This document shows, piece after piece, positions 18,678 through 42,002 of a stretch of DNA of 47,169 nt. The notes beneath the pieces were generated by a model. The model worked only from the letters and a program-made list of their open reading frames with translations. It was not told where the DNA came from and did not search any database. How positions within the stretch are numbered: position 1 is the stretch's first letter; every line of letters begins with the position of its first letter. A program made the position numbers and the translations under genes. Location: IMG/VR virus record IMGVR_UViG_3300045988_038165, positions 1-47,169 of that record. One strand, 5' to 3'. Origin of the DNA: a virus.

Positions 18678-18734
18678 TTTTCTATTGCTACGGGCTAAGT
18701 GTCAAGTAGTATATAACTTCCAAAATTAAATATT

Positions 18735-19639: not shown

Positions 19640-19651
19640 AAATAGAAAAAT

Positions 19652-19789: not shown

Positions 19790-19806
19790 CTTTAAATAAA
19801 TAAGAT

Positions 19807-20526
19807 ATGAATAATTTGATTAAAGTTGGCGAAACTATAAACGCAAAAGAAACTATGAGTTCTTTGCAGATAGCAGAGCTCACAGGTAAACAACATTCAA
19901 ATGTTATGAGAGATATTCGCAATATCCTTGAACAACTGGAAGAAAAACATAAATTTAATTTTGAATTGATGTTCAAAATCACCAAGTTAGGGAATAACGC
20001 AGAAAGAAAAGACCCTTATTATCTTCTAACTAAAAAAGATAGCCTACTTCTTGCAAGCGGATATGATGCAAATCTACGGGCTAAAATCATTAATCGTTGG
20101 GAAGAACTCGAAAAGGAGAAGCGTTTCGGCAACTTCGTTATTCCGTCTACATTTAGCGAGGCTTTAATGTTAGCAGCAAAACAAGCGGAGGAAATAGAGG
20201 AGAAAAATAAATTGCTGTTAGAGCAGACTCCAAAGGTTGAGTTTTATAATGCTGTTACAGGTAGCGAGGACACTATTGATATGCGAACGGTTGCAACTGT
20301 GTTGAATATGGGGATAGGTCGGAATAAAATATTTGAAGTATTAAGAGATAAACGTGTTCTTGATCGTAAAAACATGCCTTATCAAAAGTATATAGATTTG
20401 GGATATTTTAGAACAGTTGAAACTCAATATACAAAAAGTGATGGAACTAACTGCATTAATATAAAAACTGTGGTATTTCAAAAGGGACTAGATTTTATAC
20501 GCAAAACATTAACTTTAAACAAATAA
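19807..20526 (+). CDS. Rha-N / KilAC antirepressor-like protein, paralogue 3
   Basis: MSSLQIAELTGKQHSNVMRDIR plus a KilAC-like C-terminal half (TPKVEFYNAV...MRTVATVL). Confidence 0.7.
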   Translation: MNNLIKVGETINAKETMSSLQIAELTGKQHSNVMRDIRNILEQLEEKHKFNFELMFKITKLGNNAERKDPYYLLTKKDSLLLASGYDANLRAKIINRWEELEKEKRFGNFVIPSTFSEALMLAAKQAEEIEEKNKLLLEQTPKVEFYNAVTGSEDTIDMRTVATVLNMGIGRNKIFEVLRDKRVLDRKNMPYQKYIDLGYFRTVETQYTKSDGTNCINIKTVVFQKGLDFIRKTLTLNK

Positions 20527-24628: not shown

Positions 24629-25261
24629 ATGTTGTATTGTGATTGTCCGCTAGGAGCGGCTTTACCGGATATTCCGGCTGTAACATGTCCGGAGAACTTC
24701 GGTCAGATTCAGAAAGTAGTATTTCAGAGATTGATGGGTAAAGCGGCTGAGAATTCAATACCCGTTGCAACTGCTAAAACATTGGCTACTTGGACGGCTT
24801 TACTTGCTGCAAAAGACGCTACTAAAATGGTGGTTTCGCCGTACATTGCTGAGCCGACTGTTGAAGCTGGCGAGGCTTTGACGTATGGAGGTGGAAACGC
24901 AACACCCGGTGGTGTAGTTGAAATTTTGGGGTCTAATAGTACTTCGTTCACAGGGAAACTCCTCAAAACGCCTCAGAAAGTAATTAAGGTTTTAAAGGGT
25001 CTGATGTGCGAAGTAACTGGCGGACTTGGTGTTTGTCTGATTAACGGCAACGGTCAGATCGCTGCTATTAAAGACGGTGAAAACTATAAGCTAATTCCCA
25101 TTGAATCGCTGTTTGTAGGTGATCGCACCATTGGAGGTTTGGAAGCACCGGACACGAATGTAATTTCGTGGAGTTTCAAGCCTAATTGGTCGGATAACTT
25201 GGAGATTTTCAAACCGAACTTTAACCCTCTGACACAGTTAATACCGGCTTCGCCAGAATAA
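24629..25261 (+). CDS. Hypothetical beta-rich protein (210 aa), possibly structural
   Basis: Lies between terL and the portal gene behind its own promoter box. No motif recognised. Confidence 0.5.
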   Translation: MLYCDCPLGAALPDIPAVTCPENFGQIQKVVFQRLMGKAAENSIPVATAKTLATWTALLAAKDATKMVVSPYIAEPTVEAGEALTYGGGNATPGGVVEILGSNSTSFTGKLLKTPQKVIKVLKGLMCEVTGGLGVCLINGNGQIAAIKDGENYKLIPIESLFVGDRTIGGLEAPDTNVISWSFKPNWSDNLEIFKPNFNPLTQLIPASPE

Positions 25262-27503: not shown

Positions 27504-28420
27504 TGTTAACGGTAGATATTCTAAAACAAAATAAAGCTCTTTCGGAGCTAACAGATGAACAGTTGAATGCTATTGCTACTCTTTCTCAGAATGACGAAAC
27601 GCAGGTTGTTCAGACGAAAGTCAAGGAGGAAAGAGCAAAAGCAACTTTATCACTGAGTCAAGCGTTCGGCATTGACGATGTTACAGACCTCACACTTGAA
27701 AAGGCTGTTGAGTTCGGTAAGAACAAATTTTCTTCTATCGATTCTGCTAAGTTTGAAAAAACTATTTCAGACCTTAAAACAGAACTTGAGGCCGAAAAAG
27801 CAAAGAAGGTAGGTGATAAGGATAACGATAAAATAGCCGCTTTGCAGGCTGAGTTAAACGATACTAAGACGAAGTATTCGGAACTAACAAATCAGCTTAC
27901 AGAGAAAGAAAAAGAGTTCTCAAACAAGCTATCCGATTATAAGATCACTTCCCATATTACACAGGCTTTAGGCAGCATGAAGTTTGGAAAGGGAGTTAAT
28001 GACGCTGTGTTGAATATTATCAAACAGCAAGCAGTTAACGATCTGAAAACTGAGTTTACTCCTACAATTGTCGAGAAAGACGGTAAGGAAAGCGTTATCT
28101 TTATGAAAGACGGTGTACCTTACAACAATCCTGCAAATGGTCTGAATCCTTACTCTGTATCTGAACTGCTGACTGAGAAACTGAAACCTTTTGGTGTTCT
28201 TGACGAAGGAAGGACAGTGGGAGGTGCAGGAGGCAAAGGAGGCGGAAAAGGAACGCCAACGGCAATTGATTTGACAGGCTGTAAGACAAAGGTAGAAGCA
28301 CAGGAAGTTGCGCATAAATACCTTGCCGGAAAGGGTCTAACAGTGGGGTCGGAAGAGTACCAAACGGAACTCAATACAATTTGGCAAGAGAATGATATTC
28401 AAAACTTGCCTTTACAGTAA
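27503..28420 (+). CDS. Scaffolding protein (by composition and position)
   Basis: 305 aa, helical and coiled-coil-rich with a Gly-rich C-terminal patch. Directly upstream of the capsid gene. Confidence 0.5.
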   Translation: MLTVDILKQNKALSELTDEQLNAIATLSQNDETQVVQTKVKEERAKATLSLSQAFGIDDVTDLTLEKAVEFGKNKFSSIDSAKFEKTISDLKTELEAEKAKKVGDKDNDKIAALQAELNDTKTKYSELTNQLTEKEKEFSNKLSDYKITSHITQALGSMKFGKGVNDAVLNIIKQQAVNDLKTEFTPTIVEKDGKESVIFMKDGVPYNNPANGLNPYSVSELLTEKLKPFGVLDEGRTVGGAGGKGGGKGTPTAIDLTGCKTKVEAQEVAHKYLAGKGLTVGSEEYQTELNTIWQENDIQNLPLQ

Positions 28421-28469
28421 AACAAAAGGGGAGCGATCCCCACATTATAAACTTTAAAAACAGATTATT

Positions 28470-29669
28470 ATGAGCTTAATTGCGACACGCACTCAAGAAA
28501 TGCGGTTGAGAAATCCGCAAGTTGACAAAAACATGAGTCGCCTCACAGAGTGGGGTGCGCTTGACTTTTTCCTTTCTCAGACGAATGCACCTGATTCTAT
28601 GCTCACCGATGAAACGAAGCGTAGAGCATTTAGTTCTATGGGTACAGACATCAAAATTCCGGTGATTGATTATGACGGTACTGTAACAGTTGCAAACGAA
28701 CGCACATGCGTAATTGCGGACGCTGAGAATACCTCTAAACTGATGGCTGTTGTATGGAAAACATACGCTTTCGGTTTTACGATGGTCCCGACTATGTTTA
28801 ACAACAACGAAATTGACTATCAGAAAGATTTTGAAAAGAAAATGCTTAAGTTTTCTCGTAAATTCTTAGACCAAGTTGACAAGGACGCTATTGCAGCACT
28901 GGAAGCAGCTAAAACGCAAAAGTTTGGCAACCTGCTTTACTACACGCAGACAGCGAATGACGTACAGGTTAACTACATGCAGCGTAACGATATTTTAGGT
29001 GACTTGCACCCGATGTTCCGTTCTATGGACTATTCCGGTCAACTTCATATCGTAGGTGATACAGGTGTAGACGCTATTGTTCGGAAGTTGGAACAACACG
29101 GAATCTACAACGATGTTAACAAGCAACTGGAATATGCAAATAAGATTTTCCACTTTACAAATAACATGGTTTTGGAAAGCGAAAACTTTGCTCAATTCTA
29201 CGCAGTTGAAAGTGGTAACGTTGGTATGTTGACCCGTGTTGACCGCGAAGCCCTCAGACGAGCAACCTCTAAAGCAGGTCACGAATGGGACGTTATCAAC
29301 TTCCCGTTTGCAGGTTTCCAGGTTGGAACGCATTACTACGAATCAGTAGGCGATCAGTCAAAAACCGCAGGCGCAGCAACTGCTGACATGACATGTAACA
29401 TTAAAGAGCACTACGGTTTTTCTGTTGATATTGCTTTCGTTGTAGCTTACAACTCAGCACCGGAAACTGTTTCTAACCCGGTTATGAAGGTTGAAATCAA
29501 GAAGGACGGCTCTCAATTTGGAGGTACACCAGTTTACATTACGAACGCTGCACAAGTAGGAGTCCCCGGTGAGGGTGGTGCGCTTGATGTAAACATTGCA
29601 CAGGTCAAAGGTGAAGCAGCGTCAGCAACTGGCGGTGTTCTTAACGTGAAAACCTCGGCAGATGCATAG
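28470..29669 (+). CDS. Major capsid protein (by position)
   Basis: 399 aa, after the scaffold gene and followed by the strongest terminator in the late region. Confidence 0.6.
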   Translation: MSLIATRTQEMRLRNPQVDKNMSRLTEWGALDFFLSQTNAPDSMLTDETKRRAFSSMGTDIKIPVIDYDGTVTVANERTCVIADAENTSKLMAVVWKTYAFGFTMVPTMFNNNEIDYQKDFEKKMLKFSRKFLDQVDKDAIAALEAAKTQKFGNLLYYTQTANDVQVNYMQRNDILGDLHPMFRSMDYSGQLHIVGDTGVDAIVRKLEQHGIYNDVNKQLEYANKIFHFTNNMVLESENFAQFYAVESGNVGMLTRVDREALRRATSKAGHEWDVINFPFAGFQVGTHYYESVGDQSKTAGAATADMTCNIKEHYGFSVDIAFVVAYNSAPETVSNPVMKVEIKKDGSQFGGTPVYITNAAQVGVPGEGGALDVNIAQVKGEAASATGGVLNVKTSADA

Positions 29670-29699
29670 CGAGAAACTAAAATAGATGTTTAATTAAAA

Positions 29700-29731
29700 G
29701 GGAGGGGAAAGAAATATCCCTTCCCTTTTTT
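29700..29731 (+). terminator. Rho-independent terminator after the capsid gene
   Basis: GGGAGGGGA (29700..29708) / TCCCTTCCC (29717..29725), 9 bp with one G-U pair, followed by T6. Confidence 0.8.
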
Positions 29732-29744
29732 AATTTGAAGCAAC

Positions 29745-31049
29745 ATGTATAGAATAAAAGACATAAAAGATAGCTTAAAAAACGTAGTAGGTTGGAGGCA
29801 GTCGTACGATTTAGACAATCAGATAGACACCGAACTAACAACGTCTGAAAGCGGTATTTCTTATCAAGACGTTCACCCACTTGTGACGCTTGAAAACATA
29901 TCATCTATCATGCCGTTAGATTACTATAAGAAGTATCCGGAATATAGCGATACAAAGACTTATGCAATCGGTGACAAGGTGAGATTTAACAGTGATCCTC
30001 TATTGTCTAAACCATCTGTATGGATAGCTACAAACGGAACAACCGGAGAGCAGCCCTCAGAGGGTAGTCAAAACTGGAAGAGATATAACACTTTATCTGA
30101 TTACCTCAGAGAGTTAAACGAAAAAGCAATAACGGCTACTATCACTAAGTTTATCACAGAAAAGACGATAGCGGGGGAAACAAAGACGCTGTTAGAGCGT
30201 AGGCCACTGTTTGATGGTTCGGGCTACTACACTAACCAAATTGACCCTACAAAGAGCATGGTAGGATATGAAATATTGCCAGTTCGGGCGATGGGTGTTA
30301 CTACGAAGATCGAAAAAATCGGTTTGCAGTTTACGAAGCCAGTGAAAGTTAAGATGTATCTTTTCCACAGCTCACAGCCTCAGCCCATACACACGTTTGA
30401 CTTGAATTATACCGGAAATGGTGCGTATCAATGGTTTGATACACCGGACGTATTTCTGCCGTACATCTCTGAGATAACCTCACCGGGTGGCACATGGTAT
30501 CTGTGCTACGATCAAGAATCATTGCCGTATGATGTATTTGCAATCAACATGGCAAAAGACTTTAGCGCGGAGCCATGCGGAACTTGCAACGTTGGAAGTG
30601 TGCAGGCGTGGAGAGAGCTAACAAAGTATATTCAAATATCACCGTTCCGGAACGACACAAAGCAGGGGGATAATCTGTTTGATATTCAATCAAGCGTCTA
30701 TACACCTGCAACATGTTACGGAATGAATGTGCAGTTTACGGTAGCTTGTGACATCACCGACTTCATTATAAGCGAAAGACTTGTATTTGCGAACGCTCTT
30801 TCTTTGCAGATGGCTGCTTATATCCTCAGAGAACTTGCTTTGAATCCGAACGTCCGGCAGAATGCTAATCAATTAAACATTGATAGAGAATCAATCTTAT
30901 ACGAGGTTGACGGTGTGTCACAGGGACGTTCGCAGGGTATCGGGCATCAGTTGAATCAAGCAATGAAGGCATTGAGCGTTGATACAAAAGGGATGGATAG
31001 AATATGCTTGACGTGTAAAAATGGTGGTATCAGATTTAAATCGACATGA
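29745..31049 (+). CDS. Virion-module protein of unknown role (434 aa)
   Basis: A large ORF after the capsid gene. No motif recognised. Confidence 0.55.
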   Translation: MYRIKDIKDSLKNVVGWRQSYDLDNQIDTELTTSESGISYQDVHPLVTLENISSIMPLDYYKKYPEYSDTKTYAIGDKVRFNSDPLLSKPSVWIATNGTTGEQPSEGSQNWKRYNTLSDYLRELNEKAITATITKFITEKTIAGETKTLLERRPLFDGSGYYTNQIDPTKSMVGYEILPVRAMGVTTKIEKIGLQFTKPVKVKMYLFHSSQPQPIHTFDLNYTGNGAYQWFDTPDVFLPYISEITSPGGTWYLCYDQESLPYDVFAINMAKDFSAEPCGTCNVGSVQAWRELTKYIQISPFRNDTKQGDNLFDIQSSVYTPATCYGMNVQFTVACDITDFIISERLVFANALSLQMAAYILRELALNPNVRQNANQLNIDRESILYEVDGVSQGRSQGIGHQLNQAMKALSVDTKGMDRICLTCKNGGIRFKST

Positions 31050-31498
31050 TAACAACATTGTTAGATAGAGTTAAGAAAGTGAAAGAGGCTTTAGATACCG
31101 GACGAATAGCGAAGGAGATTGTGCGGGATAACGATAACATACTTATCGACATGAACGCACAAGACCAGCTATTCGCCAAAGGCGTTAACAGGTTGGGAGT
31201 CCGGATAGACGAATATAGACCGTACAGCCCTTTCACTATCAAGGTTAAGATAGAGAAACGGCAACCGTACGACCGGGTGACTTTGAAGGACACAGGGGAG
31301 TTTTACGACTCTTTCTACGTTGAAACGGCTGAGGATAGATTCTATATTAAAGCCTCAGACGAAAAAACGGACTGGTTGATTAAAAAATACGGTGCTGAGA
31401 TATTTGGTTTAACTAATGAGTCGCTTGCCGAATTTATTAACGATTATGTGAAAGATGAAGCGGCAAAAAAAGTCAAGGAGATACTAAATGAAAGATAG
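31046..31498 (+). CDS. Neck / head-completion candidate (150 aa)
   Basis: ATGA overlap with the upstream gene. The call rests on position only. Confidence 0.4.
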   Translation: MITTLLDRVKKVKEALDTGRIAKEIVRDNDNILIDMNAQDQLFAKGVNRLGVRIDEYRPYSPFTIKVKIEKRQPYDRVTLKDTGEFYDSFYVETAEDRFYIKASDEKTDWLIKKYGAEIFGLTNESLAEFINDYVKDEAAKKVKEILNER

Positions 31499-32057
31499 AG
31501 CTATTTTAAAGCCGAATGCGGTACTTTTCGATGAAGTGATAGGAAATGTACAGGTTAGCCTCGTAAAGTCGCTACAATGGCTAAATTATGCGTTTGGAAG
31601 CGCATATAAGTTAGTGGAGCGAACAGAGAAAGGAAAGTTCATCACTCCTTCTGTTTATTACAAGGATAAAGACTATTTGAGGTTAGAGCCGAATGACAAA
31701 TACGGTAACACCTGCTTTTTCTATATCCACGACTCACAAGATTACGAGGATAACGGAGCGTTCGGTTTCGGTGATTTGAAAGGTGAGGTGAGTATTATAT
31801 TCTGGTTCGACACCCGGACAATTCCCGGTGCGGAAGGGTACAACGTTGAGTTCGTCAAACAACGCATATTGCGAGCGTTAACGCATGAACTTGAAATACC
31901 ATACGGAGGCTTAAACGTTAAACGGGTATTAAATGACGCAAAGAATGTATATGACGGTTTCAGCATAGATAAGACCGACAATCAATTCTACGTATATCCT
32001 TATGCTTGTCTAAGGTTTGTATGTGACATGGTAGCACCGGAGGCGTGTTATCCATAA
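31488..32057 (+). CDS. Neck / tail-completion candidate (189 aa)
   Basis: Overlaps the upstream gene by 11 nt. The call rests on position only. Confidence 0.4.
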   Translation: MKDRAILKPNAVLFDEVIGNVQVSLVKSLQWLNYAFGSAYKLVERTEKGKFITPSVYYKDKDYLRLEPNDKYGNTCFFYIHDSQDYEDNGAFGFGDLKGEVSIIFWFDTRTIPGAEGYNVEFVKQRILRALTHELEIPYGGLNVKRVLNDAKNVYDGFSIDKTDNQFYVYPYACLRFVCDMVAPEACYP

Positions 32058-32065
32058 TACGATAA

Positions 32066-32102
32066 GGGGAATATATATATATATATGTATATATCCCCTT
32101 TT
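32066..32102 (+). terminator. Terminator hairpin containing a (TA)n tract
   Basis: GGGGAATATATATATATATATGTATATATCCCC followed by TTTT. Confidence 0.7.
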
Positions 32103-32211
32103 GTGTTAAATAAGTGTTAAAGATTAAAGTTTTGCTTTGTGTTTTAAAAGTTATGCTTATATTTGCAATGTCAAAAGGAAACAAAGTACTAACAATTAAA
32201 AAACAACAATT
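32103..32211 (+). promoter_or_regulatory. Promoter-leader cassette, copy E (-7 box TAtaTTTG 32158..32165)
   Basis: 105/109 identical to the early cassette at 18161..18269. Confidence 0.7.
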
Positions 32212-32394
32212 ATGAAAACAGATTTATTTAGTCAGAGAACAATTGAAAAATTTATTATGATTGAATTTGTTAAGGGTAACATGGATACTAAAGAGCAGGT
32301 AGATAGCATGATAGAATTAGTTCAAAGAAAATTAGACTTTTCATATAACGAAACATGTGACTTTATAAGGAACGCTATCGGTATAAACGCTTAA
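32212..32394 (+). CDS. Hypothetical small protein (60 aa), first gene of the accessory island
   Basis: ATG at the end of the conserved leader. Confidence 0.5.
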   Translation: MKTDLFSQRTIEKFIMIEFVKGNMDTKEQVDSMIELVQRKLDFSYNETCDFIRNAIGINA

Positions 32395-32410
32395 ATTAGA
32401 ATATTAACAA

Positions 32411-32428
32411 GTGGGGGTAATACCCCAC
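32411..32428 (+). repeat. GTAAYA-loop hairpin, copy 4 (GTGGGG-GTAATA-CCCCAC)
   Basis: Same loop and same AT-rich 3' context (ATTTAAAA) as the hairpins at 11390, 11957 and 12268. Confidence 0.7.
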
Positions 32429-32446
32429 ATTTAAAATAAAAATAAA

Positions 32447-33145
32447 ATGAACGAATTAATAAAAGTTGAAATTGAAACCAAAGACGGTGTAAATTTTGTA
32501 AGTAGTAGAGTGATTGCCAGTGAACTTGGAAAGGAGCATAAACATGTATTGGAGAGTATTAGGAAGATAGGTCAAAATCTCGACCCATCTAATTTCATAG
32601 AAAGTTCCTATCTCGACTCTTACGGAAGGGCTAAAGTAGAATACCTTTTAACTAAAGACGGTTTCACACTTTATATGTTCAATATTCAAGGTTACAACGA
32701 GTTTAAGATGGCTTATATAAACCGATTCAATGAAATGGAAAAGGCATTGAAGGAAATACAGCCTAAATTGCCTCAAACGTACAAAGAGGCTTTAAAGGAA
32801 CTACTCGTACAGGTAGAGGAAAACGAACGGTTACAGATTGAGAACAAAGATATGAAGCCCAAAGCCGAATACTTTGATGAAATAGTAGACCGGAACGGAC
32901 TAACCAATTTCAGAGATACAGCAAAGCTGTTAGGCGTGTCCGAAAAAGCACTTATCTTTCTTCTGATTGATAAGAAGTACATATACCGAGATCAGAAAGG
33001 AAAGTTGAAGCCAATTGCCAAGTATGTTGGAAACTATTTGGAGTTGAAGGAATGGGCGAAAGGTGAAAAGGCAGGGACTCAAACACTGGTAACTGCAAAA
33101 GGTAGAGATCACTTTTTAAAATTAATCAATAACGTAAAATTGTAA
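32447..33145 (+). CDS. Rha-N / KilAC antirepressor-like protein, paralogue 4
   Basis: VIASELGKEHKHVLESIRKI, plus a C-terminal half close to paralogue 1 (KPKAEYFDEIV...FRDTAKLLGVSE...KLKPIAKYVGNYL). Confidence 0.7.
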   Translation: MNELIKVEIETKDGVNFVSSRVIASELGKEHKHVLESIRKIGQNLDPSNFIESSYLDSYGRAKVEYLLTKDGFTLYMFNIQGYNEFKMAYINRFNEMEKALKEIQPKLPQTYKEALKELLVQVEENERLQIENKDMKPKAEYFDEIVDRNGLTNFRDTAKLLGVSEKALIFLLIDKKYIYRDQKGKLKPIAKYVGNYLELKEWAKGEKAGTQTLVTAKGRDHFLKLINNVKL

Positions 33146-33149
33146 TAAC

Positions 33150-33983
33150 ATGGAAAAGAAAGTAAATAGCACAGGGATGTATGAAACAACGTATTCTGGT
33201 GATGTATTCGTAGGTAAATTATCCACGCCTACAAAGATAGGTTTAACAGACCAAACGAAAGTAGCTCTTTTGGAGTATCTGACAGAGAGTGACGATTTTC
33301 ACAAACTGGTATGCGATATAACCGGAACTGAAAGAAAGCAGGTGAAAGTCTCCCAGGAACTTGAAAAGCTGAAAGAGGACTATTCGTATGTATGTGATAG
33401 ATATAAGAAGGAACAACAGAAAAGCAATTATTTGCTTAACAAATGGAGGAAAGAAACGGCAAGGAGATTGGAAGCTGAAAAAGAAAGAGATAATGCGGAA
33501 AGGCATCATAAGTTTATAGTTGATGAAATATTCTCAATGCTGAAAGAAGTTGAGTGTGGCTCTGTGAGAGGTATCGTAGATGAATTGAAGGCTGAGAGAA
33601 CAAACGGAAAATTGTTGGCGGAGGAAAACGAGATGTGCAGACGGGAGAATGACAAACTAAAGCTAAACTATGATAAGGTATGCAAGGAAAAGGAAAAATC
33701 GGAAAAGGTAAAGTATGAAACAGAAAAGAAGTACAATACAGACTTTGAGTATCTCAATAAATGCAATCAGAATCAAGCAAAGACCATTACTAACCAAATG
33801 AACGACATTTTGAGTCTGAGGAACGAACTTATCGAAGTAAGAACGGAACTTGCAGAACAGAAAGAGTTAGCTAAAAAGTATATGGCTAAATCTGAGAAAC
33901 TGCAATCAAAGTTGGATAAAGCCTCAAAACGTTATGGTGAATTGATTAAGCTAATCAGTGATAAAGCTATCAAGTCTATTTAA
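33150..33983 (+). CDS. Coiled-coil protein (277 aa)
   Basis: A globular N-terminal region of about 60 aa is followed by long heptad-like charged helices. No motif recognised. Confidence 0.55.
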   Translation: MEKKVNSTGMYETTYSGDVFVGKLSTPTKIGLTDQTKVALLEYLTESDDFHKLVCDITGTERKQVKVSQELEKLKEDYSYVCDRYKKEQQKSNYLLNKWRKETARRLEAEKERDNAERHHKFIVDEIFSMLKEVECGSVRGIVDELKAERTNGKLLAEENEMCRRENDKLKLNYDKVCKEKEKSEKVKYETEKKYNTDFEYLNKCNQNQAKTITNQMNDILSLRNELIEVRTELAEQKELAKKYMAKSEKLQSKLDKASKRYGELIKLISDKAIKSI

Positions 33984-34029
33984 TATAAACAGTCCGGTGT
34001 GAAAGCCGGACTTAAAAAGGAGGTTAAAA

Positions 34030-34272
34030 ATGCGTAGATTATCTATGTCAGACAAAGGTTTGCTTATTCCGGAAGAAGGGGAAATATTTTTTGCGGAAGT
34101 ACCAAATAAGGGGATAGATCGAAAAGTGAAAACACTGGTATCGAAAGACAAAAATCGATGCGAGAATTGTGTTTTTTATAATGGTGAACTCGGTGAATTG
34201 TGTTGGAGGGTGATGTGTCTTGAAGAAGGTGTACAATATACATTTAAGAGGGTGAGCGATGGGGAGATTTAA
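34030..34272 (+). CDS. Cys4 mini-protein, paralogue 1 (80 aa)
   Basis: RCENCVFYNGELGELCWRVMC has the spacing C-x2-C-x10-C-x4-C. Confidence 0.55.
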   Translation: MRRLSMSDKGLLIPEEGEIFFAEVPNKGIDRKVKTLVSKDKNRCENCVFYNGELGELCWRVMCLEEGVQYTFKRVSDGEI

Positions 34273-34477
34273 AAGCGTAGAACTATATGACACATTCATA
34301 ATAGATCACCCTGTAACAGGGGAAACAATCAGAGTGCAAGCGATGGAAGGCAACAATGTAATATCATGCAGAGAATGCCTATTTAGGCAAAAGGAGTTTA
34401 AAAAGATATGCCCGCTTATGCGATGTGTAGACATGGCTACGGGAAAGTGTCAAACCTATAAACAAGTAAAGTTATGA
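34259..34477 (+). CDS. Cys4 mini-protein, paralogue 2 (72 aa)
   Basis: SCRECLFRQKEFKKICPLMRC has the same C-x2-C-x10-C-x4-C spacing. Confidence 0.55.
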   Translation: MGRFKSVELYDTFIIDHPVTGETIRVQAMEGNNVISCRECLFRQKEFKKICPLMRCVDMATGKCQTYKQVKL

Positions 34478-34760
34478 AAAGATTAGATTTATCATGTCTA
34501 CCGTTAAATTTAGAGGTAGGCGAAAAGTTTGAGTTAATAGATAACGACGGCAAGTACCATTTATTGAAGTGTGTTATGCCAGATAAAAAAAATCGTGTAA
34601 AGGGTGCTTCTTTACTAAAACAAAAATACCATTTAACTGCGATTCTGTGATGTGCACAGAACTAGAAAGAGGCGTGAAAAGTGGTGAAGTGATATACATA
34701 GAACTTCCGGTAAAGAATGAATTTAAGCAAGACGAAGAAAGCAAAGATGATGTTTATTGA
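34474..34760 (+). CDS. Cys4 mini-protein, paralogue 3, split by a -1 frame change in an A8 tract (34585..34592)
   Basis: Frame 0 (ATG 34474, ATGA overlap) stops at 34650 without any Cys motif. The -1 frame after the A8 tract reads SCKGCFFTKTKIPFNCDSVMC (C-x2-C-x10-C-x4-C) and ends at TGA 34758..34760. Confidence 0.6.
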
Positions 34761-34870
34761 GAGGAATTAACTTAAACCAATGGTTACTTTTGGTAAGTAT
34801 AGTACTTACTTTTAGTAACTATTAAAGCGAAAGTTTAAAAATTAAAGTTTTAATATAATAGTGTTGACTT

Positions 34871-35230
34871 ATGAAAGAAGAAGTCATTTTAATGCGCTTA
34901 GAGCTACGTTCTCAAATTAATGACACAATCTTACGTGTTGGGAAAGAAAGTCCAGCAGAAGGCAAGGAAATGGTGTCTATGTTGATATCCTGTGACTTTG
35001 TTGATGTGTACGACTTACTGGAAGGAGAAACGAGTGCATTTTTGGAGTATATGGAAAGTTGTGGTTTTATCAGAACGGAAATGCGAAAGATTAATGTTAA
35101 TAGCAACCGTTCTTATGTTCAGTGTGAAAGGGTGTCTATTCACGAATGGGTGAAGTTTGTGCAGGATAAGGGGTGTTTGTGTCACCCTGCATTGATTGCT
35201 CTGTATAGGAACTATACAGAAAATAGCTAA
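34871..35230 (+). CDS. Hypothetical protein (119 aa), last gene of the island
   Basis: ATG ORF. Confidence 0.5.
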   Translation: MKEEVILMRLELRSQINDTILRVGKESPAEGKEMVSMLISCDFVDVYDLLEGETSAFLEYMESCGFIRTEMRKINVNSNRSYVQCERVSIHEWVKFVQDKGCLCHPALIALYRNYTENS

Positions 35231-35367
35231 TCATGAATTATTAAGTAAGGAATAGGAGGTTAACGTCTCCTTTTCTTGTTTATATACATTTGCTTTTTAT
35301 CCAGCCTCGGAGCGGTTCAGACTAACCTTTTAATTATCAATGTGTTTTGTTTTTCGCTATTTATTCA

Positions 35368-35375
35368 TACATTTG
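35368..35375 (+). promoter_or_regulatory. -7 box TAcaTTTG (a second box lies at 35285..35292)
   Basis: 23 nt upstream of ATG 35398. The upstream twin box follows a weak hairpin AGGAG..CTCCTTTTC. Confidence 0.45.
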
Positions 35376-35397
35376 TACAAAACTAATATGTTAGAAT

Positions 35398-35700
35398 ATG
35401 GAAAAAGTAAATTTACTATTAAATTGTGCGCTTCTTGTGGCGTTCATGGCGGCTTTTGTCGTTGGTTTATTGCGAAAGTGGGGAGTAATCGAAAGATTGC
35501 AGGTATTCGGTGATATGTGGCTTAAAAAGCTATTCCCTGCATATAGTCGTAGCTTCATGTATCAGTTGGCAGGGTGCAATTTCTGCCTGTCGTTTTGGGC
35601 TTCGTCTGTGTTATCTATGATATTCGCTATTTCATTCGGTGAGCCGTTATTCCTCGCTACACCGTTATTTGCTGCGCCTGTTTGTCGAATCTTAATTTAA
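35398..35700 (+). CDS. Small integral membrane protein (100 aa, about 3 TM helices)
   Basis: LLLNCALLVAFMAAFVVGLL, CNFCLSFWASSVLSMIFAISF and LFLATPLFAAPV. The CNFCLSFW segment recalls DUF1360, but only tentatively. Confidence 0.5.
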   Translation: MEKVNLLLNCALLVAFMAAFVVGLLRKWGVIERLQVFGDMWLKKLFPAYSRSFMYQLAGCNFCLSFWASSVLSMIFAISFGEPLFLATPLFAAPVCRILI

Positions 35701-35705
35701 TCAGC

Positions 35706-35960
35706 ATGAAGTATAATAGCGTATTACCACCGTTTGAAACGGTTGATATTATCAAGTATAATGGTGTAGAGTCTTTGCAGAGTTTTACCGATGCAGTCGC
35801 TATCCTTTCGGAGTCTGAAAACATGGGAACGTATGAAGTTAACGGAAGACTTATGCAGTGTTACAAGGGTGATTGTCTGATCAAGGAGGCAAAAGGGCAC
35901 ATCTATTGCCTCGATGCTGATGCGGTATCGATTATATTTGAGAAAGGAGGTGAGGAATGA
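35706..35960 (+). CDS. Hypothetical protein (84 aa)
   Basis: ATG 35706, in frame with the track ORF 35682. ATGA overlap with the next gene. Confidence 0.45.
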   Translation: MKYNSVLPPFETVDIIKYNGVESLQSFTDAVAILSESENMGTYEVNGRLMQCYKGDCLIKEAKGHIYCLDADAVSIIFEKGGEE

Positions 35961-36697
35961 AAGTAGGACAGCATGAAGTGGAGTTGTATGAAGGCATTGA
36001 CTCGCTGCCTATTGCGAGGTATCAAAAGTTCAATCGGTTGATGTTGGTTGATTCCGGTGTAGGCTCTACTATTGAGGAACTGGACACCCATCTGAGGCGG
36101 GCTATCCTGTACTGCAAGACTAACGCCGATCACACGTACACCGAACTGCTAAACCTTAGGCAGTCGTTTCACATGGCAACGAACGGCATTCATCCGGGCA
36201 TGATTGCCTTCGGTGCGTTCGTCAAGTCATTGGATGGGAAAGAGTATCCCGTACACATAACTGACGAGCAATTGCAGGAAATACACACCATTCTATCAGA
36301 TGTAACCGTTTCGGAGCTGTCAGAGGCAAACGAGGCGGTCAAAAAAAAAATAGAGGGTGAGATGTCGATGTACTTCCCGACAATGGGTGACAGTCCTCAG
36401 ATTAAGGAGTACTACGATCTGAAATTGCAGCTACTAACCGCAATGTTAGATCAAACAGCGAACGGGATAGACCGGAAAGATGAAATACAGTCGTTGACCG
36501 ATCAATTAACGGTATTCTATCCGCCTCGCTGCTTTCAAGGCGAGAAATCGGTAGAGATACAGTCAGATAAGGAGTTTACGGAGATGTGTTTACTTATAAC
36601 GAAGGAAATGCACATAAACGCAAAGGACATGACAGTATTTGATTTCTACTCAGCATTCGAGATGATTAAAAGACAAAGTAAAAAAGCTAAAAAGTAA
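35957..36697 (+). CDS. Tail assembly chaperone candidate (by position, helical)
   Basis: 246 aa, directly upstream of the tape measure gene. Contains an A10 tract at 36341..36350. Confidence 0.4.
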   Translation: MKVGQHEVELYEGIDSLPIARYQKFNRLMLVDSGVGSTIEELDTHLRRAILYCKTNADHTYTELLNLRQSFHMATNGIHPGMIAFGAFVKSLDGKEYPVHITDEQLQEIHTILSDVTVSELSEANEAVKKKIEGEMSMYFPTMGDSPQIKEYYDLKLQLLTAMLDQTANGIDRKDEIQSLTDQLTVFYPPRCFQGEKSVEIQSDKEFTEMCLLITKEMHINAKDMTVFDFYSAFEMIKRQSKKAKK

Positions 36698-36702
36698 AGA
36701 GT

Positions 36703-39700
36703 ATGGCAAACGATGTTAAAGGAATAAAATACAGCGATCTGATACAGCCGGATAACAGCATATCAGAGGCGGTTAAGCAGTTAGAGCAACTGCAAAAGCT
36801 ATATGAAACAATGTTAAAGCGTATCGAAGAAGGTGCGAAAGGTCTGCAAAAGCCACTCAGTGAGGGAGGCGGTGCGACAGAGGAAGGGCGCAAAAAGATT
36901 GATGCCTACGAAAGACAGGTGCGTTCACTGGCGAAGGCAGAGGTTGATCTGAAGTTGGCGATGAATGACACCGCTAAGGAGATTGCCGTATTGAAGCAGC
37001 AGCAGACAGACCAAACACGCCTCAATAAGTTAGTAGCTAAACTTAATAACTCAATGGCTGGTAGCTACAATGCCCTGTCAGCGCAATACGAGCTAAACAA
37101 GGTTAAAATGAACAATCTTTCGCAGTCGTATTTGGAGAATACAGAAGCCGGAAAGAGGCTGGTTAAACAAACGGCTGAGATATACGCAGCGATGGATAAG
37201 TATCAAAAGAGCACTGGAAAGCACACGTTAAGCGTAGGTAATTACAAGCAAGCGTTTGACGGTTTAGGTTTCTCAGTGTCACAGGTTGCACGGGAGTTGC
37301 CATCACTCGCCATCAGTGCAAATACCTTCTTCCTCGCTATCTCGAATAACATTCCGATGGTGATAGACGAGATACAGAAACTGAGAGCTGCAAATGAAGC
37401 AGCAGCAAAAGCGGGTGAGGCGCAAGTAAGTATAACCGGAAAACTTATTAAGTCGATGTTTTCGTTTAACACAGTTATGGTACTTGTGCTTACTGCATTC
37501 TCTCTGTGGGGTAAGGATATAACCAACTGGATAGGTAGCCTATTCAAAGGTAAAACAACGGTAGATCAATTGAAACGGTCTACTACTGACTTGAAAGACG
37601 CAATATTAGATGCTGGGAAGAGTGCCGTAAACGAGTCTGTGAGACTGAAAATCTTATATAAAGCGGCTACCGATTCCACACGCAGCCAAAACGAGCGTCT
37701 AAAGGCTGTTAAGGAGCTAAAGAAAGAGTATCCGGAGTACCTTAAAAACCTCTCTGATGAAACCATTATGGCGGGTAACGCATCAAAGGAGTATAAGGAA
37801 CTTGCAAAACACATTCTATCGGTCGCAATGGCACGTGCTTACGAGGAAAGGATACAAAAGAATGCCAAAGAAGTTCTTGACCTCGAGGAAAAGAAGAATC
37901 AAGTATTAGAGGAAGGTAGAAAGACTTACCAAAAGCAACAAAAGGAGATCGAGGAACTTAAACGTTCGTCTAAGGGTATCGGTGTCGGTGCGGTGGCTTT
38001 GGAAGCGGCTTTACAAGGGCAGGCGTCCGCGTGGAATACCGCCAAAAAGGAGGCAAAGAGCTATGACGAACAAATAGCAGTTATCAATAAGTCGAGTGAG
38101 GAACTTGCTAAAAAGGTGGTTATTCCCGATCTTCTTGCAGGGGACAAAGGAGGTAAGACGAAGAAAAGTACTAAGAAGGACTTTGACCTACAAGCTGAGT
38201 ATGAAAATAGCCGTATAGCACTTATTATTGATTCCCGTTTGAAAGAGCAGGAAGAACGTAAAAAAGCAACGGCAGATGAACTGAAAAAGCTAAAGGAGAG
38301 CACAACGGAGAAACAAAGAGCTATGCAGTTGTATGCTGATACCGTGTACAATATAGAGGCAAAATTACGTAGAGATTTGGAGAAACTGCAAAACGACTGG
38401 AAAGTAGAGGACTTGCAAATCACGCATGACCGATTGAGTGAACGCCTAAATGCTGTTAGACGTGGCACGGCTGACGAACTATTGATCCAAGTGCAGCTCC
38501 TCGAAAACGAAAGAGCGCAGGACGAATTACACATTAAACAGTCGACTGACACAGAAGCGGTAAAGAATGAACGTCTATTGATATTACAGCGTGCGTATCA
38601 ACTTGCTTCTGCAAAGCTGAGAGATGATTTCACGAAGGATCAAGATCAGCGTATAATATCAAGTTCTGTGTTCCGGCTGCAGCAAGAACAGCAAGCGAGC
38701 GAAGCCGAATTTTACATTGTGCAGAGATCAGCTAAAGAGCAGGAAGTTTTCCGTTTAAATGCTGAGCGTCAAAAATGGGAACAGATATTAGAACTAACAC
38801 GATTGTACGGTTCTCAGATTACAGGATACGAGATTAAGACGGTTGAGGATACCATCAAAGGTATAGACAATGCGATTAAACAAAATACGTCCGGTTGGGA
38901 CAGTGAGCAGGGTGTATTTGGCAACCTGTTTGATCTGATGTTCGGAGGTGCGTTCGGTGATAAGGGCGGAAAGTCCGGACAGGAACGTGCAGAGGAGTTC
39001 AAACAGTCCATTTTAGACGCTTCTGAGTTTGCGATAGAGAATCTTAAGAGCGTGGCACAAGCGAGGGTAGAAGCGGCTGAGAAAGCTGTACAGGCAGCAG
39101 AAAAGGAAGTGTCAGCCCGACAGAAGGTTTTGGACGCTGAGATTCAAGCGAGAGCAAGCGGATACGCCAACAACGTAGCTACGGCACAGAAAGAACTGGA
39201 CTTTGCCCGAAAGCAGCAAGAAAAGGCTCTGAGGGATAAGAAGAAGGCACAGAAGCAGCAAGAGCGCATAGATACGCTTATGCAGGCAAGTTCTTTGGTG
39301 ACTGCTACAGCTAACTTGTGGAAGGACTTAGGTTTAGCCGCTATTCCGGCAATCGCTCTGATGTGGGGGTCTTTTGCCTTCGCTAAGATCAAAGCCTCTC
39401 AGTTATCTAAAGCCTCAGACCAAACGGAGGAATACGGTGACGGTACGGTAGAAATGATTGATTACGGAGGCTCACATGCTTCGGGTAATGATGTTGATTT
39501 AGGCACAACGAAGGACGGTAAGCGCAGACGGGTAGAAAAGGGTGAGTATTTCGCTGTAATCAACAAACGTTCCTCACAACGTTATAGGCGATTAGTCCCG
39601 GACTTGATTAATTCACTGAATAAGGGTACTTTTGAACAGAAATACCTAAACGCCTACTCCGGTGCTGATGAAGTCACGAATATCATGCAGGGAGGCAACG

Positions 39701-39831
39701 TAGATTTGTCTAATGTTGAACGTGATTTGAAGTCAATCAAGGAGAGTGCCGGACACAAGTTTATAACCGGAGCGGACGGTACGATAATTGAGGTGAAAGG
39801 AAATGTTAAACGTATAATAAAGACGAAATGA
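36703..39831 (+). CDS. Tape measure protein
   Basis: 1,042 aa, with long coiled-coil stretches and hydrophobic segments (FNTVMVLVLTAFSLWG, AAIPAIALMWGSFAFA). Sits upstream of the distal tail genes. Confidence 0.85.
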   Translation: MANDVKGIKYSDLIQPDNSISEAVKQLEQLQKLYETMLKRIEEGAKGLQKPLSEGGGATEEGRKKIDAYERQVRSLAKAEVDLKLAMNDTAKEIAVLKQQQTDQTRLNKLVAKLNNSMAGSYNALSAQYELNKVKMNNLSQSYLENTEAGKRLVKQTAEIYAAMDKYQKSTGKHTLSVGNYKQAFDGLGFSVSQVARELPSLAISANTFFLAISNNIPMVIDEIQKLRAANEAAAKAGEAQVSITGKLIKSMFSFNTVMVLVLTAFSLWGKDITNWIGSLFKGKTTVDQLKRSTTDLKDAILDAGKSAVNESVRLKILYKAATDSTRSQNERLKAVKELKKEYPEYLKNLSDETIMAGNASKEYKELAKHILSVAMARAYEERIQKNAKEVLDLEEKKNQVLEEGRKTYQKQQKEIEELKRSSKGIGVGAVALEAALQGQASAWNTAKKEAKSYDEQIAVINKSSEELAKKVVIPDLLAGDKGGKTKKSTKKDFDLQAEYENSRIALIIDSRLKEQEERKKATADELKKLKESTTEKQRAMQLYADTVYNIEAKLRRDLEKLQNDWKVEDLQITHDRLSERLNAVRRGTADELLIQVQLLENERAQDELHIKQSTDTEAVKNERLLILQRAYQLASAKLRDDFTKDQDQRIISSSVFRLQQEQQASEAEFYIVQRSAKEQEVFRLNAERQKWEQILELTRLYGSQITGYEIKTVEDTIKGIDNAIKQNTSGWDSEQGVFGNLFDLMFGGAFGDKGGKSGQERAEEFKQSILDASEFAIENLKSVAQARVEAAEKAVQAAEKEVSARQKVLDAEIQARASGYANNVATAQKELDFARKQQEKALRDKKKAQKQQERIDTLMQASSLVTATANLWKDLGLAAIPAIALMWGSFAFAKIKASQLSKASDQTEEYGDGTVEMIDYGGSHASGNDVDLGTTKDGKRRRVEKGEYFAVINKRSSQRYRRLVPDLINSLNKGTFEQKYLNAYSGADEVTNIMQGGNVDLSNVERDLKSIKESAGHKFITGADGTIIEVKGNVKRIIKTK

Positions 39832-42002
39832 ATGTAAAAGATTTGAGGTTTAAAATCGGGGGTGTCATTGTACACCCTCTTTACACCGAGCTAAAACGGA
39901 AGTTCGGCAAAGAGAATCAACAGGAGTTTTTCAGAGAAACAATCGAAGGTAGTTTAACTTTTATAGGTGCGGACTATTTGTTAATAAAGAATAAGAGCAT
40001 TGAGGATGTTATCTACATGACTATCGAACAAAAGGACAAAGGACAGACGGATGCGCAATACACTGTCATTTATGAAGCCTATTTCAGTAAGACTGATTGC
40101 GAGATAGATAACGACAATCGGAGTTGCAAGGTTAAGTTATCACCTAAAGACGCTTATTCCGGCATAATGAAGAACATTGAGAATAAGTATGACTTAATCA
40201 GACTTGCACCAGCCTTGACTCAGATAGGCGTGTATAAGCGTCCGCTTGTGCAGGTGTACATTGCAGGGGCCGGAACAATATCTAACTACCTTGCAGGGAC
40301 CCAGTATGAAACGGATGTGTATAACGTAGTTACAGACAATAACGAGTTGATTAACGAACATCACTTTGCTTTCTTCGCTGCATATAACGAGGTGGAAGTT
40401 AAGGCAGTTCCATATCAATCTTTTAACGGTAAGTACTACGGAAAGAACGGTATATACACGAAGTTGGACGGGAATTACTCAATTAAATGGAGTTATAGCG
40501 AGGGTCTTAATATCGGTTACCTATCACTTGAAAATAGGGACGGTGTAATACTGTACAGATCGCAAAAAATCACATGGAAGGATAAGAGCTATTTCTACAT
40601 AGATGTTTCTGAAATTACGTTTGAAAGGGTAGTAAACAAACCTACATTCCCTCAGTCCTTCGGTGGAAACTCGGTATTGCTTCAAAAGGTATTTCAACGG
40701 TTGCTGTTAGACCTTCCGGAGTTTGACGGTAAACCAACAGGGAGGTTATCGTCCGAAGATGTTTACCCGACAAATAGTAATTACCTGTATGCCGCACCGC
40801 TTGTGGGAAACTATTTCTATACGTCTACAAAGGTGCAGGAAGTCCCAACGGAATATGGCGTAAACGATGAAGGCAAATACTTTGTAGATAACTTTCTCCC
40901 TGCCGTTGTGGGTGCAGGTAAACTGTATCCGGTGTGCCGTTCAAGATGGGGTAATATGTCTATTTGGTTTGAGTATGATCTATCTTACAATGCTTTGGAA
41001 GAGCGTGCGAGAAAGAAGTACGTATTAAGACACTCTTTTTCGATAAGTGACGTAATAAAGACATTGCTAACGCAGGTAGACCCAACGTTGCACCACGAAG
41101 CCACGGAGGAATATTCACGCTTCTTATACGGTACGTCTATTCCGTTGACTGGCGCACCTTACAGAGTGTTTATCACTCCAAAGAGTAACATTCTAAAGGG
41201 TGAGTATGATCAGCCCGCTAAGAAGGCAGAAACGACACTCAGCGACATATTTAAGATGCTACGTGATACTATGAAACTCTATTGGTTTATAGACGGTGAT
41301 AAACTGAGGATAGAGCATATATCGTATTTCATGTCCGGAGGCTCTTATACTGGTACTGGGACCGTCGGTATTGACTTAACTAAATTGAGGTATGCAAAGA
41401 GTGGGCAGCTATTCACGTTTAAAACCAACACGGTTAAGTACGATAAAACCGATCTGCCTTCCCGTTTTGAATTTTCTTGGATGGACGACACGACTAATAC
41501 CTTCGCAGGCTTCCCTATTGATGTAAAGTCAAACTATGTACAGGAGGGGAAGAAAGAGGATATTCGAGTAGCTAACTTTTCGTCTGATGTTGACTATATG
41601 CTGCTATCACCGGGCGACTTTTCCTCAGATGGTTTTGCGTTGCTTGGTGCGGTTCAAAAGTCCGGCAAATGGGAACTGCCATTTATTACGGTGCCGTTGA
41701 CGGATAAGTCGGGTAACAACTACACCGTAACGCCTCAAAACGGCTACATGTCGTTCTTGCATCTCGTTAAGTACTACATGTACGATATGCCCGCAGCTAA
41801 CATTGAACACGAAGGAGACAAGACGGTTACAGTCCAACGGCTGAGGCGAAGTATGACACAAGACTTATCATTCACCTATAACACAGCGCCCGATCCGGTA
41901 AAGCTAATGACTACCGATGTCGGAAATGGGAAGCCTCTAACCATGACTGAGGACTTAACAACTCGTGAAATAACCGTTTCACTCACATATACCCCCTCTT
42001 AA
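39828..42002 (+). CDS. Distal tail / baseplate-hub-type protein (724 aa)
   Basis: ATGA overlap with the tape measure stop. The call rests on position only. Confidence 0.4.
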   Translation: MNVKDLRFKIGGVIVHPLYTELKRKFGKENQQEFFRETIEGSLTFIGADYLLIKNKSIEDVIYMTIEQKDKGQTDAQYTVIYEAYFSKTDCEIDNDNRSCKVKLSPKDAYSGIMKNIENKYDLIRLAPALTQIGVYKRPLVQVYIAGAGTISNYLAGTQYETDVYNVVTDNNELINEHHFAFFAAYNEVEVKAVPYQSFNGKYYGKNGIYTKLDGNYSIKWSYSEGLNIGYLSLENRDGVILYRSQKITWKDKSYFYIDVSEITFERVVNKPTFPQSFGGNSVLLQKVFQRLLLDLPEFDGKPTGRLSSEDVYPTNSNYLYAAPLVGNYFYTSTKVQEVPTEYGVNDEGKYFVDNFLPAVVGAGKLYPVCRSRWGNMSIWFEYDLSYNALEERARKKYVLRHSFSISDVIKTLLTQVDPTLHHEATEEYSRFLYGTSIPLTGAPYRVFITPKSNILKGEYDQPAKKAETTLSDIFKMLRDTMKLYWFIDGDKLRIEHISYFMSGGSYTGTGTVGIDLTKLRYAKSGQLFTFKTNTVKYDKTDLPSRFEFSWMDDTTNTFAGFPIDVKSNYVQEGKKEDIRVANFSSDVDYMLLSPGDFSSDGFALLGAVQKSGKWELPFITVPLTDKSGNNYTVTPQNGYMSFLHLVKYYMYDMPAANIEHEGDKTVTVQRLRRSMTQDLSFTYNTAPDPVKLMTTDVGNGKPLTMTEDLTTREITVSLTYTPS

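Follow-up and report, generated by a model that had tools for sequence, protein, structure and literature searches.

Introduction

Morons of lambdoid and HK97-like phages are autonomous promoter/terminator units inserted in late operons. A unit of comparable layout was predicted in a virus sequence of 47,169 nt (IMG/VR record IMGVR_UViG_3300045988_038165, positions 1 to 47169; this whole stretch is called the window below), where an island of 3.3 kb at 32058-35397 separates the head-neck genes from the tail-assembly genes. The original prediction, made from the sequence alone, described the island as a moron-like transcription unit of seven open reading frames (ORFs) with an early-type promoter, standing where a tail tube gene would be expected. 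In this study, we compared the island with the same junction in related phages and searched its genes against sequence and structure databases. The island was present in all 18 compared genomes of the phage clade and in none of seven outgroups, its gene content was mosaic, and the cassette at its head lay at breakpoints of rearrangement. The island is thus, on our reading, probably a hyperplastic accessory region of this clade.

The most similar regulatory element that has been described is the promoter-early stem-loop (PeSL) cassette, found in hyperplastic regions of T4-type myoviruses (PMC2839356, PMC4122927). Like the PeSL, the cassette studied here is a multi-copy intergenic element of ~100 bp composed of a GGGG...CCCC stem-loop terminator, a host-type promoter, and a translation-start leader. 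Both precede small ORFans in variable regions, both are associated with indels in which one phage has two flanking copies and a relative has a single copy, and both shield accessory genes from the adjacent late virion genes. The differences lie in the promoter (Bacteroides -33 TTTG / -7 TAnnTTTG here, sigma-70 -35/-10 in the PeSL), in the A-rich leader without a Shine-Dalgarno sequence, in the copy number (4-6 per 47-kb siphophage genome compared with ~50 in a T4-type genome), and in the stem-loop, which here is upstream of the promoter. Recombination was read here from genome comparison and the promoter and terminator from sequence, whereas experimentally shown activity and recombination mini-circles characterise the PeSL. 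As the cassette has no sequence homology to PeSLs, the relation is an analogy and not family membership.

PeSLs were contrasted with morons in the discussion of PMC2839356. The island agrees with the moron layout in having its own promoter and terminator signals and a deviant base composition, and in lying between late genes that are adjacent in relatives. It departs from that layout because it is multi-gene and mosaic instead of a single gene, is fixed at one site across the whole clade, and is led by a regulatory cassette that is repeated elsewhere in the genome. Moreover, the B40-8/B124-14-like phages, to which the window belongs, are described as lytic (PMC7644841); on that description there is no prophage expression, and the term 'moron' in the sense of prophage conversion is inapplicable. 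'Hyperplastic region' fits the island better.

Two further known systems were relevant for the comparison. The 232-aa island protein carries both domains of the anti-repressor-like Rha/KilAC regulators (PF09669, PF03374, phrog_63) and belongs to a four-member family in the genome, but a phage described as lytic offers no repressor/lysogeny module to antagonise, and the N-terminal half of the protein is swapped between close relatives. The PDS1-like Parabacteroides/Bacteroides siphophages (structures 9wwa/9wwb; MN929097, OP172815, OR296437) have homologous tube, adaptor, and terminator proteins and an identical structural gene order, including the tube gene between terminase and portal. They differ in being without the island; the DUF1360 membrane-protein gene starts 4-11 nt after the terminator gene. 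No usable paper was located on structure 9wwa or on the OP172xxx isolates.

Results and Discussion

Comparison of the island region in related phages

The window is a circularly closed assembly of ~47,080 bp, as bases 1-89 are identical to 47081-47169 (89 nt), and every long ORF is on the + strand. It represents a B40-8/B124-14-like Bacteroides fragilis siphophage. Megablast of positions 28000-40000 gave matches only to Bacteroides siphophages of that group, with BF695P3 and BF695P2 as the best matches (~92% identity over 83% of the query). Phages of this group are classic human-gut B. fragilis phages, known as faecal-pollution markers and therapy candidates. The clade set consisted of 18 genomes, i.e., the window and 17 fetched related genomes or regions, and the slots in them were anchored on the 189-aa, 100-aa, 92-aa, and 246-aa proteins, which are conserved in all clade genomes. 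The outgroups, more distant Bacteroidota siphophages, were located by tblastn with the tail terminator protein (24-38% identity). Seven of them were inspected: Parabacteroides PDS1, Elizabethkingia TCUEAP2, Croceibacter P2559Y, BF486P2, Alistipes AS73P1, BKO1-3, and B. uniformis C1_85S2P.

All 18 clade genomes had the slot at the same junction, between the terminator gene and the gene of the 100-aa membrane protein, and the region is in every published B40-8-like genome. The slot size ranged from 1.7 kb (B40-8) to 5.7 kb (vB_BfrS_23) and its GC content from 0.335 to 0.357. Each of the 16 complete slots opened with a GGGG/CCCC hairpin and T-run followed by the cassette, and all 18 slots ended with a -33/-7 promoter ~30 nt before the membrane-protein gene. 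Between these two constant ends the content was mosaic and drawn from a common gene pool (Table 1).

The outgroups gave a uniform picture. In all seven, the gene order was TerL, tube, portal, capsid, adaptor, p150, terminator, DUF1360 protein, p246-like, and tape measure. No island was present in any of the seven, and the gap after the terminator gene varied from a 22-nt overlap to 322 nt. Presence in 18/18 clade genomes and in 0/7 outgroups makes the island a derived, clade-specific insertion. The break of the late operon noticed in the window was confirmed; the flanking genes are adjacent in the outgroups and separated in the clade. The presence/absence comparison proposed with it had a divided outcome: the island was absent from the outgroups, but its occurrence within the clade was universal and not sporadic. 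The tube chain of PDB 9wwa was 100% identical to that of Parabacteroides phage PD491P1 and 97.6% identical to that of PDS1, so the 9wwa virion comes from an island-less phage, and this type of tail can be built without the island genes.

The GenBank records of B40-8 and BF3-TP1 start in the slot, and we considered whether the slot corresponds to physical genome ends. This was rejected, as the records break at the hairpin and repeat. The B40-8 record (NC_011222) is cut inside the loop of the slot terminator hairpin, and the BF3-TP1 and BF10P1 records begin inside the cassette. These record ends are probably assembly or sequencing breaks and not genome ends.

The promoter-leader cassette

The cassette at the head of the island was 97% identical to the copy at 18158-18276 over 119 nt, in agreement with the near-identical pair that had been predicted. 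A core of 44 nt was exact in both cassettes (32100, 18158), where 0 such matches were expected by chance. The spacer between -33 TTTG and -7 TATATTTG was 18 nt, and the leader was conserved up to the ATG at 32212. Weaker copies were found at 3062, 5762, and 7735, resulting in five copies in the window, and GGGG/CCCC hairpins precede the copies at 18158 and 32100. Across the 24 clade records that hold most of the cassette, the number of copies was 4-6 per genome. The '96 bp perfect repeat' described for B40-8 in 2008 (PMC2535602) is the repeat of this cassette.

Several observations connect the cassette with rearrangement. When the window was aligned with the whole BF695P3 genome, homology broke exactly at three of the five window cassettes (5875, 18276, and 32175), and a rough binomial test of breakpoints at cassettes gave P ~0.02. 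Position 18276 is the 3' end of the 18k cassette and at the same time the breakpoint of a 2.2-kb replacement relative to BF695P3. In BF698P1 and BK649P1, two cassettes enclose an extra 103-aa gene at the place of the single cassette of the window, and several other slots showed either two cassettes or one cassette split by a 150-nt insert. The slot family c3 (58 aa) was in the slot in 11 phages, while in BF695P3 (26903-27079) it lies behind an early-region cassette; judged from these positions, the c3 gene has evidently moved between cassette-headed loci.

The copies within one genome also resembled each other to different degrees. The slot copy and the 18k copy were 96.5% identical in the window, and the two copies of B40-8 were 93.9% identical. 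In BF695P3, the slot copy was only 83% identical to its 27k copy (the counterpart of the window 18k copy), and the window 18k cassette was 86.5% identical to the BF695P3 27k cassette. By these identities, the paralogous cassettes have evidently been homogenised independently in different phages. Together with the breakpoints, the two-cassette inserts, and the positions of the c3 gene, this suggests that the cassette is a recombination substrate as well as an expression signal.

A second repeated element is present inside the island. The GC-rich hairpin D6 (TAACAnGnnGGGGTAAyACCCCnC, then an A-rich tract) had copies at 1669, 11384, 11951, 12262, and 32405. The island copy was 92% identical in vB_BfrS_23 and B124-14 despite different neighbouring genes. 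This hairpin could serve as another linker for recombination, or else act in RNA stability or processing.

The segment behind the 18k cassette, 18277-20514, is replaced by ~630 nt in BF695P3. Immediately behind this cassette, the window encodes a 135-aa beta-solenoid protein (18270-18677) that matched the YdcK repeat PF18836 (1e-18) and showed bactofilin and hexapeptide-like matches too. Its gene contains 13 copies of an 18-nt repeat (tandem repeats 18384-18709).

Boundaries and transcription signals

The extent of the island, 32058-35397, was confirmed with all of its parts, i.e., the terminator, the cassette, seven ORFs, and the closing hairpin and promoter boxes (Table 1). The opening hairpin, GGGGAATATATATATATATATGTATATATCCCC followed by TTTTGTG, gave a folding energy of -20.0 kcal/mol with z = -4.2, and 0/200 shuffles were equal, as would be expected for the strong terminator that had been predicted. 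At the other end, the weak hairpin and the boxes at 35285 and 35368 were both found as predicted. The box at 35368 has a -33 TTTG at 18-nt spacing and lies 30 nt 5' of the start codon at 35398. Rfam, tRNA, and tandem-repeat scans of the island detected only an (AT)12 run in the terminator stem.

The GC content of the island was 0.349, compared with 0.367 for the early region and 0.414 and 0.428 for the two flanking late modules. The base composition of the island therefore resembles that of the early region and departs from that of the late flanks. Taken together, the predicted signals delimit the island as a unit of its own: a terminator and a promoter cassette stand at its head, and the tail genes downstream have a new promoter, which is in line with the autonomous transcription unit of the original prediction.

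The -7 boxes reading TACATTTG were found at 24583 (tube gene), 35285 and 35368 (tail genes), 2747, and 42677. Unlike these boxes before the tube and tail genes, the cassette promoters read TATATTTG or TATCTTTG at -7. The promoters with a TACATTTG box may form a separate class, weaker or regulated; apart from the box, no motif common to them was seen. A phage sigma factor near terS, which would define a distinct late promoter class, was not found among nine proteins.

Table 1. Features of the island, its flanking genes, and the repeated elements. Slots: number of the 18 clade slots with a homologue.
Feature	Position	Strand	Evidence or remarks	Slots
Early-region cassette copy	18158-18276	+	Near-identical to 32100-32218; hairpin -17.8 kcal/mol, z = -4.5	
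Tail tube protein gene (MP2), 210 aa, between large terminase and portal	24629-25261	+	PDB 9wwa_N 'tube protein', E 2e-68	
Adaptor protein, 434 aa	29745-31049	+	PDB 9wwa 'adaptor protein', E 5e-137	
Tail terminator protein gene, 189 aa, last of head-neck operon	31488-32057	+	PDB 9wwa_h 'terminator protein', E 2e-34	
Intrinsic-terminator-like hairpin	32066-32102	+	GGGG..(AT)n..CCCC and T-run; closes head-neck operon	
Promoter-leader cassette	32100-32218	+	-33 TTTG (32136), -7 TATATTTG (32158), A-rich leader to ATG	
60-aa protein (slot family c4)	32212-32394	+	Orthologues at 73-93% identity in 9 other clade phages	10/18
GC hairpin linker	32405-32445	+	Five-copy intergenic family D6; -12.8 kcal/mol	
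Rha (N-terminal) and KilAC/ANT (C-terminal) DNA-binding regulator, 232 aa, fourth paralogue	32447-33145	+	Pfam, PHROG, NCBIfam	5/18, window's subclade only
Coiled-coil protein, 277 aa	33150-33983	+	Conserved N-terminal 182 aa, variable C-terminal coil	15/18 (long coiled-coil protein, two sequence families)
Cys4 mini-protein 1, 80 aa	34030-34272	+	CxxC..CxxxxC; four Cys conserved	16/18, 23 members (all Cys4 mini-proteins)
Cys4 mini-protein 2, 72 aa	34259-34477	+	Orthologues at 83-99% identity	
Cys4 mini-protein 3, frameshifted	34474-34760	+	ORF 34474-34650 (58 aa), remainder in other frame	
Imperfect palindrome, 45 nt	34779-34823	.	Arms 21 nt, 76% complementary; in 220-nt gap before 119-aa gene	
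119-aa protein	34871-35230	+	Homologue in every clade genome, unlike all other slot genes	18/18
Weak hairpin and T-run closing the island	35254-35271	+	-12.7 kcal/mol, z = -3.2; flagged terminator-like	
Tail-operon promoter region	35285-35375	+	TACATTTG boxes at 35285 and 35368	
Small DUF1360-like membrane protein (p100), first of tail-assembly/tape-measure block	35398-35700	+	Weak PF07098	

Island genes and their products

All seven predicted ORFs were present at the expected coordinates. Apart from the Rha/KilAC protein, no island product matched a Pfam, PHROG, NCBIfam, or PADLOC family of known function. None matched a virion family, in agreement with the earlier view that no recognisable virion part is encoded in the island. 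In the PADLOC search six of the seven proteins had no match and the Rha protein reached only E 0.008-0.016. A sequence search of the concatenated seven proteins against the PDB gave no match either; this says nothing about them, as the phage whose structure was solved is without the island.

The 60-aa protein showed no family match in Pfam, PHROG, PADLOC, or NCBIfam. For the Rha/KilAC protein, Phage_pRha (PF09669) scored 78.1 bits (gathering threshold 29.9) and ANT/KilAC (PF03374) scored 78.8 bits (gathering threshold 25.3), supported by phrog_63 at 1e-52 and TIGR02681 at 56.7 bits (threshold 45.95). Its paralogues in the window are at 3722-4417 (46% identity), 10637-11374, and 19807-20526 (28% each), so that its earlier assignment as the fourth paralogue of a Rha/KilAC family was correct. 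In the slots, the gene was found only in the subclade of the window, and its N-terminal half was exchanged between relatives. The next gene encodes the 277-aa coiled-coil protein, for which 274 homologue clusters of 172-356 aa were obtained. In many of these the N-terminal 182 aa are conserved at 80-95% identity while the C-terminal coil is replaced, and Pfam gave only generic coiled-coil noise for the protein and its homologues. In BF695P3, the Rha/KilAC and coiled-coil genes are fused in one 475-aa ORF (12970-14397), which either hints that the two products act together or reflects a sequencing error.

The Cys4 mini-proteins form slot family c1, with its members distributed over 16 phages. 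The 72-aa protein is a paralogue of the 80-aa protein, 24% identical with all four Cys aligned. In BF486P1 and vB_BfrS_23 the orthologue of the third gene is intact and encodes 100 aa; compared with these, the A8 run at 34585-34592 of the window is one base short, and the remainder of the Cys motif is read in the other frame up to 34760. Therefore, of the three tandem Cys4 mini-proteins proposed originally, the first two were intact and the third was disrupted by a frameshift. The palindrome downstream of these genes folds into a hairpin of -18.3 kcal/mol (z = -3.0) and could be an attenuator or an operator.

The 119-aa protein matched phrog_34779 at 4e-23, a PHROG of unknown function, and showed invariant H91 and W93 residues and a G-x-x-CHPAL motif. 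Its AlphaFold 2 (AF2) model (predicted local distance difference test score, pLDDT, 86.9) consists of three helices, a four-stranded sheet, and a C-terminal helix. The model had no significant PDB match; the best hit (E 0.7, template modelling (TM) score ~0.25) resembled a winged helix only weakly. The BFVD matches of the model were limited to three short entries (84-116 aa) without a name. The AF2 model of the 80-aa Cys4 protein (pLDDT 86.9) had no PDB fold match either (best E 1.9), and the fold comparison recommended in the original prediction thus gave no significant PDB match for either of the two models. An exhaustive hidden Markov model search of 1.84 billion representatives with the 119-aa protein returned 13 clusters; of these, twelve were of 49-143 aa, and the other, a repeat protein of 2,736 aa, was taken as spurious. 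The homologues of the 119-aa, 277-aa, and Cys4 proteins were mostly on phage-sized or shorter contigs, and the named members were clade phages. By this distribution, the homologues of the non-Rha island proteins appear to be confined to this phage group.

Proposed role of the island and alternative explanations

We consider it probable, though with a good deal of reserve, that the island is a clade-specific hyperplastic accessory region, which was inserted in the ancestor of the B40-8/B124-14-like phages, was diversified by means of the cassette, and encodes small non-virion products. As judged from the genome comparison, it is a mosaic, clade-specific insertion with its own predicted signals that splits an ancestrally contiguous late operon, and the cassette is at rearrangement breakpoints. 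The insertion site would be between the tail-terminator gene and the tail-assembly/tape-measure genes. Transcription of the head-neck genes would stop at the hairpin 32066-32102, and host RNA polymerase would then read the island from -33 TTTG / -7 TATATTTG in the hairpin-promoter-leader cassette of ~115 bp, while the tail genes would restart from their own promoter at ~35368. Since the same cassette heads several units of the replication half, the island and those non-late genes are most likely expressed together. The cassette would offer homology for recombination, by which genes could be gained, lost, or exchanged, both inside the slot and between it and the early region, and such recombination may well drive the turnover of the slot. 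The products, i.e., the Rha/KilAC regulator, the coiled-coil protein, the zinc-knuckle-like Cys4 proteins, and the 119-aa protein, are probably directed at regulation, of the host or of the phage, or at host defences.

A bolder form of this reading, which we offer only tentatively and would not expect to hold in full, makes the cassette a mobile linker, comparable in function to the PeSLs of T4-type phages but evolved with the Bacteroides promoter type, that moves small genes between the early region and a landing pad in the tail operon, the latter being a nursery of host-takeover or anti-defence proteins. The candidates for such proteins would be the expanding Cys4 family and the clade-universal 119-aa protein, each with a confident model and without known relatives.

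Several points weigh against the hyperplastic region. The breakpoint statistic is weak, as it comes from one genome pair in which the ends are not independent. The slot has a semi-conserved core (119-aa gene in 18, Cys4 in 16, and coiled-coil in 15 of the slots), and its products could therefore serve the phage's own development, such as tail-gene regulation or assembly. No match was obtained to defence or anti-defence models or to any known fold, which leaves the functional part as inference; the anti-defence, exclusion, or takeover function of the original prediction found no direct support. Furthermore, host-type -7 boxes were found ahead of late genes as well (terS 22379, tube 24583, tail 35368, fibre 42018). 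The promoter type alone does not make the island 'early'. The 'early-type' label of the original prediction has its sole basis in the identity of the cassette with copies of the replication half.

The strongest alternative, which we nevertheless regard as unlikely, takes up the semi-conserved core. In this explanation, the island is the phage's own developmental regulatory module, in which the 119-aa protein, with Rha/KilAC where present, is made ahead of the tail genes and controls the promoter at 35285-35375 and thereby the timing of the tail-assembly and tape-measure proteins. The universal occurrence of the 119-aa gene, matched by no other slot gene, agrees with such a role, as does its position directly before the tail promoter in the window; in about half of the genomes the 126-aa c5 gene, and no other, comes after it. 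It is preceded by the 45-nt palindrome, the best fold matches of its model were winged-helix proteins (TFIIE, Pex, RepE), and Rha-family proteins are DNA-binding regulators. As the insertion split the operon, a new tail promoter became necessary. However, these fold matches were not significant, and no DNA-binding family was detected for the 119-aa protein in Pfam, PHROG, or NCBIfam. With its complete -33/-7 consensus of the host type, the promoter at 35368 may work without an activator, and most slots are without Rha/KilAC.

A still smaller share of our confidence goes to the explanation that the island genes are late, clade-specific morphogenetic accessories for tail or neck assembly, decoration, or fibre-like functions, so that their position reflects their function. 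The position inside the structural module and the long coiled-coil protein in an equivalent place in 15/18 phages would suit this role. Virion proteomics of B124-14 detected only three abundant proteins (PMC3338817), and minor components would have been missed. Against it, the outgroups have homologous adaptor, terminator, tube, chaperone-like, and tape-measure genes without the island, and the coiled-coil gene is absent from B124-14, BF702P1, and B40-8. The mosaic content and the early-like GC content, the terminator in front, and a cassette common to replication-region genes also speak against a morphogenetic role, and one Cys4 gene is frameshifted in the window genome.

The least probable explanation is a classical moron, i.e., a recent and sporadic horizontal acquisition of a fitness or conversion gene by illegitimate recombination in which the cassette has no part in mobility; the promoter and terminator, the different GC content, and the insertion between genes adjacent in relatives would fit, but the universal slot makes the insertion old, the cassette at its head has 4-6 copies in the phage's own genome and is found at breakpoints, and phages that are lytic, as described in PMC7644841, have no prophage state in which a conversion gene could act.

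Should shuffling indeed run through the cassette, modular exchange of the PeSL kind would no longer be confined to T4-type myoviruses but reach an unrelated phage lineage with a different promoter type. For practical use, a variable region of 2.8 kb, probably dispensable and with a ready expression cassette, is an obvious site for payload insertion. The conserved, well-modelled proteins of the island also make a short list of candidates that may act on the Bacteroides host.

Flanking structural genes

The original prediction had placed the island where a tube gene was missing, and had named 24629-25261 as the fallback candidate. The slot contained no tube gene, as stated, and the fallback candidate was the correct one (Table 1). 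Its match to 9wwa/9wwb was full length with roughly 60% identity, as judged by eye from the alignment. MP2, the homologue of this 210-aa protein, was identified as a tail protein of B40-8 by N-terminal sequencing (PMC2535602). The idea that the island took the place of the tube gene did not hold, as that gene is between terminase and portal also in the seven outgroups, none of which has an island; this displaced position is therefore ancestral and independent of the island. The 246-aa protein (35957-36697) was rejected as a tube candidate because the tube is MP2, and the 434-aa protein was rejected because it matches the adaptor. The annotation of the tube (24629-25261), adaptor (29745-31049), and terminator (31488-32057) genes is hereby fixed.

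Orthologues of the terminator protein were found in all clade genomes and in the outgroups. The DUF1360-like gene behind the island also had an orthologue in all clade genomes, and in PDS1 and C1_85S2P the terminator gene has a gene annotated as DUF1360 right behind it. Between the membrane-protein and 246-aa genes there is a 92-aa gene (35682-35960), which is conserved in the clade but strongly divergent between subclades (26-33% identity). It had no annotated counterpart in the inspected outgroup regions, where at most one small gene is annotated between the terminator and p246-like genes. At the other end of the map, a tail-fibre ORF spans the circular junction of the window. Five GenBank records annotate the region of the DUF1360-like gene as a 246-nt ORF on the opposite strand, at 5326-5571, 5802-6047, 5638-5883, 4840-5085, and 2992-3237 (BF10P1).

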